Assembly: GCF_018977255.1 (NCBI RefSeq)
Contig: NW_024704750.1
Coordinates: forward strand, 20,336,001-20,400,000
Direction: 5' to 3'
DNA length: 64,000 nt
Source: Callorhinchus milii
Taxonomy: Eukaryota
Made by a program: the position numbers and the translations under genes. Positions 2,235 to 63,610 of the stretch are shown one piece after another; within the stretch, counting starts at the first letter, position 1, and each line of letters begins with the position of its first letter. A model generated the notes under the pieces. That model saw only the letters and a list, made by a program, of their open reading frames with translations. It was not told the origin of the DNA and made no database searches.

Positions 2235-5200
2235 ATGGAGGACTTCACAGAAGTCCAAATCTCAGCCACAAACCCAGAGCATCATGACGGTTTGGAAGTT
2301 TGCGAGAATCTCTATCACTTCTGTGGAAATGCTTTGAAGATCAGTCGAGACAAATACCCTTCCTTTGGGTCCTATGTCTGGGAAGCTGTAAGTTCACTGC
2401 TTTGGTAAAAATGTATTATTTGAAAGGAAAAAAGAGAAATATGGCATTGCTGGTGGAGGGGGTGGGGTGGTAGGTGGGGGTGAGGCTGCAATGTTGGATT
2501 CCTTCAGGTGAGAAGTAACAATACAATACAAATTTATATTTATGCGGTGTCTTTCACATCGGGAGGAAATCCCAAATGCATTTAATAGAACTACTAGTAA
2601 TCCTTGCAAAATGCTTCACAGGATACTCTGTGCTTGAAAACTAGAAAATAAGAACATAAGAACATAGGAAATAGGAGTAGGAGTAGGCCATTCGGCCCCT
2701 CTAGCCTGCCCCGCCATTCAATAAGATCTATTCTAACTGATCTATTCTAACTCTACCTGCCTTATCCCCATATCCCTTAATCCCTTTATCCACAAGAAAT
2801 CTAACAATCTCAGTCTTGAATATGTTCAAGTCTGAGCATCTACAGCCCTTTGGGGTAGAGAATTCCATAAATTCACTACCCTCTGAGTGTAGAAGTTTTT
2901 CCTCAATTCAGTGCGAAAGGGCTAACCCCTAATTTTAAGACTGTGACCCCTGGTTATAGTTTCTCCAACCAGGGGAAAAAGTATCCCACTATCTATTCTG
3001 TCGTGCCCCTTAATAATCTTATAGGTTTCTATAAGATCACCTCTCATTCTTCTATATTCTAGAGAATATAGGCCTAAATTGCTCAACTTATCCTCATAAC
3101 TCATCCCCCTCATCCCTGGTACCAACCTAGTGAATCTACGTTGTACCCCCTTCAAGGCAAGTACATCCTTTCTTAAATAAGGAGCCCAAAACTGCACACA
3201 ATACTCTAGGTGCGGTCTCACCAGGGCCCTATACAGTTGCAGCAAGACTTCCCTACTCTTCTAACTCTTTTGTAACAAATGCCAACATGCCATTAGCCTT
3301 CCTAATTGCTTGCTGAACCTGCAAACTAACTTTTTGTGATTGGTGTACAAGGACACCCAAGTCCCTCTCAATGCTAACGCTATCTAGTCTCTCCCCTTCT
3401 AAAAAATAATCTGCTCTACTGTTTTTGCCACCTAGGTGGATGACCTCACACTTCCCTACACTATACTTCAACTGCCACCTATTTGCCCACTCACCTGCCT
3501 ATCTTGTTACATTTTTTTAATGTCATCCTCGGTGTTTACTCTCCCTCCTAGTTTAGTGTCATCTGCGAATTTGGATACATTAAGTTCAATGTCCTCGTCT
3601 AAGTTATTGATGTAGATTGTAAATAGTTGAGGCCCAAGTACTGATCCTTGTGGCACTCCACTAGTCACATTCTGCCAATCTGAAAAGGACCCGTTTATCC
3701 CTACTTCTTTGTTTTCTTCCCGAAAACTCTAAATCTAACTATACTTAGAGATATAAGGATGCAAAGTCACGTATATTTTCCTGCTTGCAAGACTCTTAAA
3801 ACGCTAGATTATAATACTGTGCTTTTTAAGGTTCTTCTCAATCAATCAATTCTAATGAAAGTGTGTGATGTTTTCAGGGACTTGTTCTCTGCGAGTACTT
3901 CGAGAAGGAGAAAATGTCTTTCACTGGGAAGAAGGTGATTGAACTGGGCTCGGGCACTGGCATTGTGGGCATTTTAGCCGTTCTCCTCGGTGAGTTGAAA
4001 GCTTCAAATCAACATTAAAATCCATCCTATTGAAATAGGTGTCAGCCTGGCTCAGGTGGTAGCACTCTCACCTCTGAGTCAGAAGGTTGTGGGTTCAAAC
4101 CCCACGTTGAGACCTGCAGAAGTATTGGAGGTATCTGTTTAGATGGACGATAAAGTTCTTGACACAACTCTGAACGAGAAGGTAGTTTGCACTTGGGGTG
4201 CTGGCCAACATTCCTCCAGGTAAATTTAGGTATTAGCTTTCTGTGAAACTTTGTGGAACTTTTCTGCATGCACATTGGCTGCTGGGTTTGTCTACAAATA
4301 CACAGTCACATCACTCAACAGTACATGTTGTGATTTAATGCCATCTTAAGACACTATATCATCTTCAAGGATTATGATTGTGCAAGAGAGAAAAAAGGCA
4401 AAACTTAAAATATAGGGAAAACATTTATATTCAATGTGGAAGAATGTTACTGTGTCAGTCAGTCATTGATGTTTAGTGTAAATAAGGAACTCTGTAATGA
4501 TAATAATTGTATTTGATATACCACATTGTTAAAATCTCTCACATGATTTGCTATAGTGTTGTGATTTACTATAGTGGCTGTATTTGTAAGCGAACATGGC
4601 AGCCAGTTTGTGCAGATCAACGACCCACAAACAGCCGTGTGAGTGAACAATTGTATCTGGGAGATTGTTGATCAGGACACTGGCAGACATTTTCTCTTCC
4701 CCTTTGAAATGTTGAATGCGCCTTTGGGATGGTACAGTTAAGAATGTGTGTTTAGCACCTGAAGACTTTCCCCTTCAACTGTGCCTGGGCTCACTTCCCT
4801 TTCCCTCCAGCTCAATCGCAAACTACCCCATTGCCCAGCTCTCTGAGACTCCACCCCACGTAAAATGTGCTTTCTAAATGCACATTGGTGTTGTTGTTGT
4901 TGTTGCTGTAGCATAAAATAAGCTTGAAGGAAGGTACACTTACTGTGGTCAATAACGATTCCCAGCTCATTTACCTCAGGCTGGAGCCTGTCAGCCCCTC
5001 TGGAGTCTGGCTGGCCATTCTGTTCCTGTAAAGTTCTCTGATGTCAGTAAGTCTGACAACCGACATTAGATGTTCCTGTTCTCAAGGTTCCTCTCAAACA
5101 TATTTGGAGGATTTAGTCTCTTGTTTCCTGTATCGATTGTCGGGTTGTTGATCAGACAAACCAGTTATTATTACTTTTTTTACTTTTCCTCAGGTGGAAA

Positions 5201-5648
5201 TGTGACATTTACAGATCAAACTTTCATCCTGAAGAAGATGAAATATAATATTTCCGTCAATATCCCACCTTGGTTAACAAATCATACAAAAGTCTGTGCT
5301 CTTTCTTGGGATGACGATTTGAGTTGTTTCCCTACAGACTACGATGTGATCCTGGGATCAGACATTGTGTACTCCAGCTCCTCCTACCCCTCACTTCTTC
5401 AGACACTGCAACATCTCAGCAACCACAGTACCACCATTTACATCTCTTCTGATGTTCGGCCTGTAAATGAGTGTAATGTTTTCCATGCGGAAATGCTGCC
5501 TAAACACTTTCATTGTGAGCGTGTCCATCAAAGTGGCAATAACAGGATCCATGTGTACAAATTAACTAAGAAACAGCACACTGGAGATAAAGAGTTAGTG
5601 TGGAGTGAGGACGCCATTAACATGGGTCTTCGTAAGTCTTCTGATTGA
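2235..5648 (+). CDS. EEF1AKMT3: EEF1A lysine methyltransferase 3-like (METTL21B-like) paralogue 1, 239 aa; exons 2235-2387, 3878-3989, 5194-5648
   Basis: GT-AG junctions join the exons in frame (153+112+455 nt). Protein has [12 protein letters not shown]...VWEA / [37 protein letters not shown] / GGNVTFTD...LSWDDD...[11 protein letters not shown], collinear with human METTL21B ([46 protein letters not shown]). Family is certain; one-to-one orthology is not established. Confidence 0.92.
2648..3720 (-). mobile_element. CR1-clade LINE, 5'-truncated ORF2 3' part plus tail, in an intron of paralogue 1
   Basis: Minus-strand RT motifs [10 protein letters not shown] and SKFADDTKL (about 3550-3660), [39 protein letters not shown], and an (AAGAACAT)n tail at about 2650. 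The frame is disrupted. Confidence 0.9.
4043..4380 (+). mobile_element. Degenerate tRNA-derived Deu-type SINE (SacSINE1-like) in an intron of paralogue 1
   Basis: A/B-box-like head AGCCTGGCTCAGGTGGTAGC...GGGTTCAAACCCC and a TTGGCTGC core. Confidence 0.7.
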
Positions 5649-7001
5649 GTCGCAACTCACTTTCTCATAACGAGTTCAAATTAAAATTTTAATATTGTTT
5701 CCTGCCTTTTGCCTCACTATAACGATATCCTGACACATGAATTAACTCACTGGCCATGAGTTCCAGTTTTCTGTGTAGGAGTGTAAGATCATAATAACAA
5801 ATCTTTCCATTTAACATGGCGGGATGTCTCAATGCATTTCATAGGATTTATTGTGAAGTGTAATGACTGTATTTTGAAGGCGAGAGGAGAAACTCGTCTC
5901 TTTTTGAGTTGTACCATGGGATTTTTTAACGTTCACCTGAACAGAGAGACTGAACCTCAATTTAAGGTCCTATCCGAAGGACGGCACCTCCAACATTGCA
6001 TTTATATAGCGCCTTTCACATCAGGAGGACATCTCAAACCCACACCCCAGTATGAGGAAGCTGGGGGCAGGAGCAGAGGCGTACGCTAATGGGTAGAAAC
6101 ATTAGAAAGAAATTGAACACATTAACAAAAAAACAGTCCTAGCATATCCAATATGTCCTCATGGTTTTATCACCTAAATCTAGAATTTGTAGCATCGTTG
6201 CTTGCGTTATTGTGTGAAAAATAGTAATTGTAAGCTCCAGGGTGCTGTTTTAGCGATCGGTTTGTAAATCATTCTAAACAAACTGCAGCTGACAATGTCT
6301 GATTCCATCAATAAATATATTTAGATTTACAGATTATTTGTTGTTTTGTGGTTAATAATAGTATCACTCGACTGTTTCTATTGAATAATAGAGTGATAAA
6401 ACCAATTTGCCAAACACAAATAGAGAATAACTGTCAACAACACCACCAACAAATTGGTTCATAATAAGCTATATTTGTATGCTGAAAACAGGTCCCTGAA
6501 ACATCATATCTTGTATATTTGAAACTGTTTTTCTCCTTCCGAACATTTAGAACTCACAGATCTTCCATCAAAACGTTCTAGATTTTGGTTGAACAATAAG
6601 TACAACCCAAACATGTTAAGGGCACCACCACTGAGTGGTGTTTAGCAAAGAACATTTCAACCAAATCCTAACATTAATCCTCTGAAGAAGCAACATTATT
6701 TTTAGAGAATATAATTTATTCTTTAGTGTCAGTCACCAACAGAGACATTGTAAAAATCTAGGAACATCTATATCACTACAACCTTCCTGGAACTGGTATA
6801 GTTCTTGGGCTGATTCATAACCAATGAACTTTTCAGTCCTGCAGAAATAACTATTCTGCTATCAAAATCCCAGGATTGTTCTGCTATCCCGATATCAGGA
6901 GAGACCGCCTGAGACAGAGCGGACAATCACAATTTTTAATTCCTCTCATTCGCATCCCATTATGAACACATGTGCCAATATTGTTGATTTTTTTTGTCAA
7001 C

Positions 7002-62999: not shown

Positions 63000-63360
63000 T
63001 GATCTGCTAATTTCCCTCAGTTGTGGTTTGTCTCCTCGTTGAATGTCAACAAGATGGAGTTGTGCTTGCTTCCCGCCTCCTCACCTCACCAGTTGCCTTG
63101 TTGCTCTCAACTGGGTTTCCTGCCCCCCAACCCCTCCCCCCCCACCAGCTACCAGCCTCCTCTTCCCGGCTGCCCCAACTCTCAGTCATTCCTTCATCTT
63201 CGTGGTCCCAATCTCTGGACTCCCAGCTCCTCCCTCCACAAGCTGCAGACCATCTCACACTGGGCAGCCCACCTTCCCTCCCACTCTTATCCTTGTTGAG
63301 CTCTGCAGCCTTCCAATTTCCCAGGGGATCGGATTCAAGAACCTCCTGATATTCAAAACC
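63000..63360 (+). mobile_element. Decayed L2 ORF2 C-terminal fragment
   Basis: SSLHKLQTI..AAHL and LPISQGIGFKNLLIFK resemble the C-terminus of the L2 at about 17100-17400. Confidence 0.55.
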
Positions 63361-63474
63361 CACTCTTTGGAACTCCATGATGGAGACTTTGGCAAAGGGA
63401 TGGAGAAAGGAAGAAACAGTACGAAACAAACTTTATCAGAACTGCTTTATTTGAATATGTCGCAAATTCAAGAG

Positions 63475-63610
63475 CTAATTTAAGTGAGAGGTGAATCTCC
63501 CTGACCAAACAGAAAGGCGGCTTTCACTCTCTGTGTATAGTTTGGTTAGCTTGTGCACATTGATGTCTTTATGCTTCACTCTGTGAACAAGCTCAGGGTT
63601 GAAATCATTT
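63475..63610 (-). pseudogene. Remnant of the last coding exon of an eighth METTL21B-like paralogue
   Basis: The minus strand reads DFNPELVHRVKHKDINVHKLTKLYTESESRLSVWSGRFTSHLN*, matching [23 protein letters not shown] (paralogue 7) and VYKLTKK...LVWS (paralogue 1). Upstream it runs into a SINE tail and no GSDIVY segment is present. Confidence 0.7.

Follow-up and report, generated by a model that had tools for sequence, protein, structure and literature searches.

The window analyzed here, a stretch of 64,000 nucleotides of the genome of the chimaera Callorhinchus milii (G000:C9:20336001-20400000, where C9 denotes contig NW_024704750.1; feature coordinates are window positions unless C9 is given), harbors an array of genes resembling the lysine methyltransferase METTL21B/EEF1AKMT3. 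Gene models revealed seven intact, open three-exon genes, g1 to g7, between 2235 and 56162, encoding proteins of 219-239 amino acids, all with GT-AG introns in phases 0 and 1 and with an exon 2 of 112 nt, as it had been claimed in the original prediction made from the DNA that the genes are intact and share their exon phasing. The orientation of g1 to g7 is + - - - - + -. When the six reading frames of the window were scanned, ELGSGTG and GSDI[VI]Y each occurred seven times, and both motifs are present in 7/7 genes, in agreement with the same prediction. The gene g1 (239 amino acids) is encoded on the plus strand at 2235..5648 (exons 2235-2387, 3878-3989 and 5194-5648), its exons 2-3 corresponding to the database protein P0001. 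On the minus strand follow g2 (222 amino acids, 12018..14775; exons 14775-14608, 13630-13519 and 12406-12018), which matches P0006, g3 (221 amino acids, 20544..22814; exons 22814-22674, 22088-21977 and 20956-20544), which is identical to the NCBI model P0002, g4 (219 amino acids, 30769..33731; exons 33731-33591, 32421-32310 and 31175-30769), which matches P0012, and g5 (219 amino acids, 41107..44060; exons 44060-43920, 42759-42648 and 41513-41107). The gene g6 (222 amino acids, plus strand, 48378..50890; exons 48378-48518, 49304-49415 and 50475-50890) matches P0016 in exon 3 and carries a run of N at 48752-48953 inside intron 1, and g7 (225 amino acids, 53253..56162; exons 56162-56010, 55153-55042 and 53665-53253) is again encoded on the minus strand. 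Next to the intact genes, the expected remnant was recovered at 63472..63606 on the minus strand. It comprises the last ~22 codons of exon 3 and the 3' untranslated region of a g7-like copy (80.6% identity to g7 over 67 nt, E 6e-9) and reaches a local score of 83 compared to at most 33 in 100 shuffles. The seven copies had been described as diversified; seven intact genes are indeed present, but g4 and g5 encode the same protein, leaving six distinct proteins in the window.

Exon 3 of 7/7 window genes scores above the curated cut-off of 21 bits of the Pfam family PF10294 (Methyltransf_16), with 112.5 bits for g3 and 112.8 bits for the g4-type protein P0012, and the best sequence match of g3 is human METTL21B (E 2e-47). 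The AlphaFold model of g3, the sole paralogue folded, has a predicted local distance difference test score (pLDDT) of 91.3 and a predicted template modeling score (pTM) of 0.89 and adopts the seven-beta-strand fold; its top Foldseek matches are METTL21B, A, C and D, with human METTL21B (PDB 4QPN) as the best hit at a template modeling score (TM) of 0.87. Nine key cofactor-binding and catalytic positions were considered, i.e., motif I, the post I Asp, (D/E)xx(Y/F), the cage Trp and the adenine-stacking Trp. All nine are present in each of g1 to g7, and they are intact in 13/15 distinct chimaera proteins and in 80/86 elasmobranch paralogues (a set derived from the 91 shark and ray profile matches described below, without two orthologues and three rows that were short or partial). 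The two failing chimaera proteins are a1, with a Cys for a motif I glycine, and a13 (C9:20412337-20415107), an open 198-amino-acid copy that lacks DxxY, one motif I glycine and the adenine-stacking Trp and is a candidate pseudo-enzyme or decaying gene. From these features the array genes are predicted to encode active S-adenosylmethionine (SAM)-dependent protein lysine methyltransferases.

The array runs past both ends of the window. Models from neighbouring DNA add four genes upstream and two downstream, so that the array comprises 13 genes within ~107 kb. At a distance of 0.53 Mb, a second cluster (C9 20.95-20.99 Mb) contains three open genes and one pseudogene, b3 (C9:20965200-20965790), an exon 3 with stops that is split by a repeat. 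In total, the contig holds 16 open reading frames (ORFs) encoding 15 distinct proteins. The Callorhinchus milii models of NCBI are identical to g3 and to the family member a12, and the genes already carry automatic EEF1AKMT3-like labels. On one side the array is flanked by a gene with an ANCHR-like B-box, which we take to be ZFYVE19, and on the other side by PLCB2; the second cluster lies near ABCD4. A search of the assembly with exon 3 returned 20 matches, 17 on C9, one on C6 and two on C4, and a Pfam search added one further locus at C9 7.07 Mb. By resemblance, the C6 locus is labelled METTL21A, the C4 loci METTL21C/E and the C9 7.07-Mb locus METTL21D.

An orthologue-type METTL21B of Callorhinchus milii exists in the database records P0053/P0244 (E 3e-73 to human METTL21B), to which 14/15 chimaera proteins are 44-54% identical and a13 is 40% identical. 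Human METTL21B is located beside METTL1 and TSFM. The array genes, on C9 and with ZFYVE19-like and PLCB2 neighbours, do not share this METTL1/TSFM neighbourhood of EEF1AKMT3, and around the chimaera METTL1, which lies on C27 beside a P450 gene, a stretch of 90 kb (C27:260001-350000) was inspected without finding any METTL21 match. TSFM was not found in the assembly by three family searches, which does not show its absence; a gap in the assembly would be the probable reason why neither TSFM nor the orthologue was found. The orthologue records of Mobula and of the sawshark Pristiophorus are labelled as TSFM isoforms, which puts the orthologue of these two at the expected locus.

The phylogeny was based on a main tree of 29 rows, including 18 paralogues (seven of them chimaera genes) and a METTL21A-like outgroup. 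The 18 paralogues form one clade (support 100/98), which is nested within the METTL21B clade (100/100 against the outgroup), excludes the chimaera, shark, ray and bony vertebrate orthologues and is joined to the chondrichthyan orthologues at 93/94. A quick tree of 73 rows with 51 paralogues agrees (Shimodaira-Hasegawa-like approximate likelihood-ratio test (SH-aLRT) 98), and 0/117 orthologues fall inside the paralogue clade. The genes therefore descend from the METTL21B lineage and do not group with the one-per-species orthologues. A single clade for the seven sampled chimaera genes was rejected by the approximately unbiased (AU) test (p-AU 0.025), a modest result as the group was named after the trees had been seen; from this it follows that several members of the family likely existed already when chimaeras and elasmobranchs diverged. 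The placement of all orthologues in one clade was not rejected (p-AU 0.34). The support of 93/94 favors a first duplication after the split of bony and cartilaginous vertebrates, while orthologue monophyly would leave an earlier date possible.

To assess the distribution among vertebrates, a profile of 14 exon-3 sequences was used, which matched 106 of 754 candidate proteins. Sharks and rays (20 species) account for 91 of these and C. milii for 10, while four are unnamed and one is from a frog. The matches are 90% cluster representatives, and the counts per species are lower bounds, the highest being at least 14 in Heptranchias, at least nine in Scyliorhinus torazame and at least eight in Heterodontus. 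Of 15 initially unnamed proteins in the paralogue clade, 11 turned out to be elasmobranch once named, one is a13 and three are without name. An orthologue-weighted search yielded among the best 120 of 283 matches a single orthologue in each of eight elasmobranch species, 111 rows that represent 110 species of bony vertebrates, in which METTL21B occurs once per species, and one unnamed row; divergent bony-vertebrate paralogues could lie among the remaining 163 matches. The METTL21B-derived family is common to chimaeras, sharks and rays and is not specific to C. milii. Taken together, the ancestry from METTL21B proposed in the original prediction is supported by tree, sequence and fold, the proposed subfamilies (1+2, 3+4+5+7 and 6) agree with the trees, and a separate conserved orthologue exists in cartilaginous fishes, namely in the eight elasmobranch species and in the two C. 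milii records. The lineage-specific expansion holds for cartilaginous fishes but is not restricted to chimaeras. As an observation of its own, the teleost proteins P0107, P0111, P0126, P0132 and P0134 (588-1923 amino acids; piranha relatives, anchovy, catfish, sardine and cardinalfish) contain two to six tandem Methyltransf_16-type domains, and relatives of two of these are labelled METTL21C or mettl21ca. Such proteins could be genuine lysine methyltransferases with several domains, or gene models in which the members of a tandem array were fused.

The array shows signs of tandem birth and death. A tandem duplication yielding g4 and g5 spans 24042..45741 with a unit of ~10.34 kb that is 99.2% identical; the two genes have the same coding sequence, no substitution (0) was counted along the whole gene, and the spacer differs by ~0.5%. 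In a three-way alignment, the sequence switches once, at 35120..35175, from g5-upstream type to g3-upstream type inside a shared block of 1 kb. This fits one very recent unequal crossover or, with the same appearance, two haplotypes assembled in tandem. The depth of the sequencing run X1 is 10-15 over g4/g5 and 6-9 over g6 and g7, which is not a copy number and does not settle the duplication, and several X1 'variants' in exon 3 of g5 are letters of g3 and not polymorphisms. Moreover, a likely gene-conversion tract between g3 and g4/g5 at 21141..22200 covers most of intron 2, exon 2 and the start of intron 1; within it g3 and g4 are 0-2.7% different, whereas exon 3 differs by 12% and exon 1 by 14%. 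This points to gene conversion from which the exons encoding the loops were exempt. Death or decay of copies is represented by a13, b3 and the remnant. The tandem expansion that had been proposed is thereby borne out, with recent duplication and pseudogenisation, also by the extension of the array.

Evidence for expression comes from four sequencing runs aligned to window positions 41000-56400, which consist of contigs without tissue labels, none recorded as RNA. In run X5, one contig joins exons 1, 2 and 3 of g5, fitting g4 equally, and one contig joins exon 1 of g7 to its exon 3 with 114 unlisted letters in between, which is about the length of exon 2. The contigs of run X1 continue through the introns. 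Spliced products of g4/g5 and g7 are thus seen, i.e., these genes are transcribed, and the possibility that the copies are untranscribed does not apply to at least these two. Both X5 contigs hold 53 further letters upstream of a piece that starts just after AG, suggesting a non-coding first exon upstream of the coding start of g4/g5 and g7. Runs X8 and X10 list no gene-length piece over 41000-56400; bins of g6 exons have some cover in X8 and none in X10, and contigs give no expression level.

Further differences concern the loops predicted to contact the substrate. In the METTL21D-p97 structure, the substrate loop is enclosed by the enzyme loops S2-H1, motif II and S7-H5 (PMC10339199), and for METTL21A-D it was described that targets are discriminated by single distant residues (PMC9942839). 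The 32 columns equivalent to these three loops were mapped by alignment and compared to a reference set of 117 orthologues, from which four listed rows had been dropped as aberrant or unnamed. In the orthologues, conservation reaches 90% or more in 18/32 loop columns and in 62/158 columns outside the loops. Of these, chimaera paralogues retain 30% of the conserved loop residues in comparison to 81% of the conserved non-loop residues, a loop retention as low as this being obtained in 0/20000 permutations, and elasmobranch paralogues retain 37% and 83%, respectively. The orthologue signature (the Leu after DxxY, Glu-His after strand 7 and the N-terminal Leu-Phe) is kept by 0-20% of the paralogues, as seen at Leu155, Glu185, His186, Thr188 and Phe21 in whale shark numbering; the array genes thus lack the loop and N-terminal signature of EEF1AKMT3. 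At a core identity of ~0.6, loop identity is 0.60 in 17 orthologue pairs and 0.26 in 2766 paralogue pairs. Within five of 15 elasmobranch subfamilies loop identity is 0.81-0.84, i.e., the loops are as well kept as the core, and within five others it is intermediate with 0.66-0.72, compared to 0.29 between subfamilies. The sequence diversification claimed for the array is real and concentrated in these predicted substrate loops, and the pattern is the one to be expected if the copies had gained different, then stable, partners.

It appears somewhat more probable than an even chance that the METTL21B-derived family consists of active lysine methyltransferases that are likely to methylate proteins other than eEF1A at Lys165. 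In such a scenario, a dispersed, intron-keeping copy of METTL21B would have settled between the ZFYVE19-like gene and PLCB2 before the chimaera-elasmobranch split, while the original gene would have been retained and would likely still methylate eEF1A. The copy may have multiplied through unequal crossing over, as the form of the g4/g5 junction implies, accompanied by gene conversion and, at times, the death of a copy. Purifying selection has preserved SAM binding and the lysine cage of Trp, Asp and Tyr, and the three loops have lost the orthologue signature in their sequence and turned subfamily-specific, their role in substrate choice being assumed by homology. Each subfamily might then dock on a different folded cytosolic protein and methylate one lysine, the most plausible targets being a chaperone or a translation factor, as guessed from other Methyltransf_16 enzymes. 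Several observations weigh against this reading. METTL21D, the source of the loop roles, is only ~27% identical, and the roles were transferred by homology. Loop identity is only 0.32-0.58 within the five remaining elasmobranch subfamilies, and since the very sequences compared also provided the tree that defines the subfamilies, likeness within groups is favored. The loops are surface loops, for which the fast change in the chimaera copies is also expected under relaxed constraint. Transcript evidence covers 2/6 distinct window genes and comes from one run. Furthermore, the METTL21B orthologue was not found in the C. milii assembly, where the best match is ~50%, and is represented for C. milii by database records alone. 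In addition, the lysine that aligns with human Lys165 is present in the two eEF1A genes found in the chimaera, so that the old substrate is still available.

A first alternative, which we regard as unlikely, is that a repeat-rich locus drives duplication and that the copies, while keeping the fold, drift in their loops towards weak or broad specificity. The selection analysis bears directly on this. Codon models (own implementation, of limited power) were fitted to 14 chimaera genes and 192 codons with g5 and a13 left out. Purifying selection dominates: the median pairwise ratio of nonsynonymous to synonymous substitution rates (dN/dS) is 0.37 and model M0 gives 0.36. About 30% of the sites are at a dN/dS near 1, and with sites fixed in advance the loops have a dN/dS of 0.79, exon 2 one of 0.15 and the remaining sites one of 0.36 (likelihood-ratio test (LRT) of loops against the rest, 85). 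The value of 0.79 depends on the assumption of a shared synonymous rate, since a fit to the loops alone gave 0.35 with a doubled overall rate. The near-neutral sites, the fast loops, the 15 chimaera loop sets that all differ from each other (mean identity 0.25) and the dead or degraded a13, b3 and remnant would all be expected of relaxed copies. However, loop dN/dS is still below 1 (p 0.007), the catalytic positions are kept in the large majority of chimaera and elasmobranch copies (13/15 and 80/86), and subfamily-specific loops are conserved between sharks and rays.

Quite unlikely in our view is also that all copies act on eEF1A Lys165, or on its isoforms or conformers, and differ by tissue, dose or degree of methylation. 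The kept lysine at the position of human Lys165 agrees with this, as does the failure to find the orthologue in the assembly, and the kept lysine is likewise consistent with an orthologue that retains its role. In the eEF1A gene at C10:12848672-12849001, the second residue behind the Lys165 position is a Cys, in place of the Tyr of the other eEF1A gene. The activity of human METTL21B is described as tissue-dependent and stress-inducible, which would suit divided expression, and the enzyme as needing GTP and aminoacyl-tRNA, having one detected substrate and being limited to vertebrates (PMC5416902). On the other hand, loops that differ from one subfamily to the next are not accounted for by an unchanged target. 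The orthologue signature is kept by 0-20% of the paralogues, and a conserved METTL21B orthologue exists separately in eight species of sharks and rays (among the best 120 of 283 matches).

It was also proposed that the family behaves like immune genes, i.e., that the copies are effectors methylating pathogen proteins or toxin-targeted proteins and evolving in an arms race. This we consider very unlikely. The birth-and-death pattern, the predicted substrate loops as the fastest-changing part and an exon 3 that stays 12% different between g3 and g4 amid flanks differing by 2-5% are in line with it. Sites with dN/dS above 1 were not found among the 14 chimaera genes, however. Positive selection was tried and rejected: the comparison of M7 and M8 gave an LRT of 6.5 (p 0.039), but the extra class has a dN/dS of 1.03 and the comparison of M8a and M8 an LRT of 0.07. 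Together with a loop dN/dS below 1 and loops that are stable across the shark-ray split in several subfamilies, this speaks against an arms race, and interferon-type elements upstream are not enriched (6 compared to 8.7 expected, with true promoters unmapped). In the same upstream scan, the sole enriched motif were interferon-gamma-activated-site-like (GAS-like) sites, which numbered 60 compared to 37.6, with palindromes counted on both strands and promoters unmapped, and were not used. Finally, adaptation to urea and methylamines, by bulk lysine methylation that shields against urea-derived carbamylation or by small-amine methylation, is highly improbable and the proposal remains without support: the family range does match the urea-retaining cartilaginous fishes, but the coelacanth, which also retains urea, has one orthologue (among the best 120 of 283 matches) and no paralogue among the 106 profile matches, the protein-lysine cage is unchanged, and the literature search found no paper joining carbamylation, elasmobranch, urea and lysine.

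Apart from the genes, the window contains dispersed repeats at 15850-19500, 26850-27316 and 37185-37651 as well as many copies of 70-190 nt throughout, which presumably represent fragments of short and long interspersed nuclear elements (SINE and LINE) and gave no Pfam match. A strong guanine-cytosine (GC) skew is present at 16-20 kb, and Pfam likewise returned nothing for a set of four long ORFs located at 16.8-18.6 kb and at 37 kb. Downstream, a tandem repeat array of ~2 kb was found at C9:20488584-20490752, and an exon with a match to protein-L-isoaspartate O-methyltransferase (PCMT) at C9:20496880-20497116, ~80 kb from the array.

In comparison to known systems, human EEF1AKMT3/METTL21B, the eEF1A Lys165 methyltransferase, is the closest in sequence and fold and shares motif I, post I and DxxY, whereas the array genes are multi-copy, lie in another genomic neighbourhood and have lost orthologue-specific loop and N-terminal residues. 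Judged by sequence and modelled fold, the family thus behaves as a Methyltransf_16 lysine methyltransferase and does not qualify as an EEF1AKMT3 orthologue. METTL21A, C, D and E, with HSP70, VCP and other substrates, belong to the same fold and Pfam family (PF10294) but occupy their own loci (C6, C4 and C9 7.07 Mb) with one or two genes each, and in the tree the METTL21A-like outgroup stays apart from the array genes. With birth-and-death immune and detoxification families the array shares tandem arrangement, recent duplication, conversion and pseudogenes; unlike arms-race families, it has no detected dN/dS above 1 and keeps old subfamilies across sharks and rays. A precedent for a change of substrate through surface residues among close paralogues is provided by METTL21A-D (PMC9942839). 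A search mostly outside subscription journals found no publication that describes an expansion of METTL21B in sharks, rays or chimaeras, and some supplements could list the family; METTL21 combined with shark returned unrelated papers only. Callorhinchus is unmentioned in the available part of a metazoan METTL survey (PMC8662637), the accessible main text of the catshark genome contains no METTL term (PMC11979771), and the available supplements of PMC13188829 and PMC3964593 gave no match. The whale shark genome supplements, as far as accessible, list an orthogroup OG0001578 (EEF1AKMT3) with 92 proteins in 28 taxa, its id occurring only in name and domain tables (PMC8455134). The family is thus real and ancient; it belongs to the cartilaginous fishes, descends from an enzyme that is known and has apparently gone undescribed in the literature.

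Seven-beta-strand lysine methyltransferases are described as unusually specific, often with one substrate each (PMC13410288). In the family described here, dozens of variants share an unchanging catalytic core and differ in loops that are specific to their subfamily, making substrate choice testable through loop swaps, and the automatic 'EEF1AKMT3-like' labels in databases hide a likely change of substrate. It is conceivable, if rather doubtful, that cartilaginous fishes possess at least ten METTL21B-derived enzymes, each with its own target, setting marks absent from bony vertebrates that serve urea physiology or defence, and constituting a natural library of how a single-substrate lysine methyltransferase is reprogrammed through three loops. 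If the paralogues do methylate proteins other than eEF1A, cartilaginous fishes would be predicted to have methylated proteins that are found in no other group.

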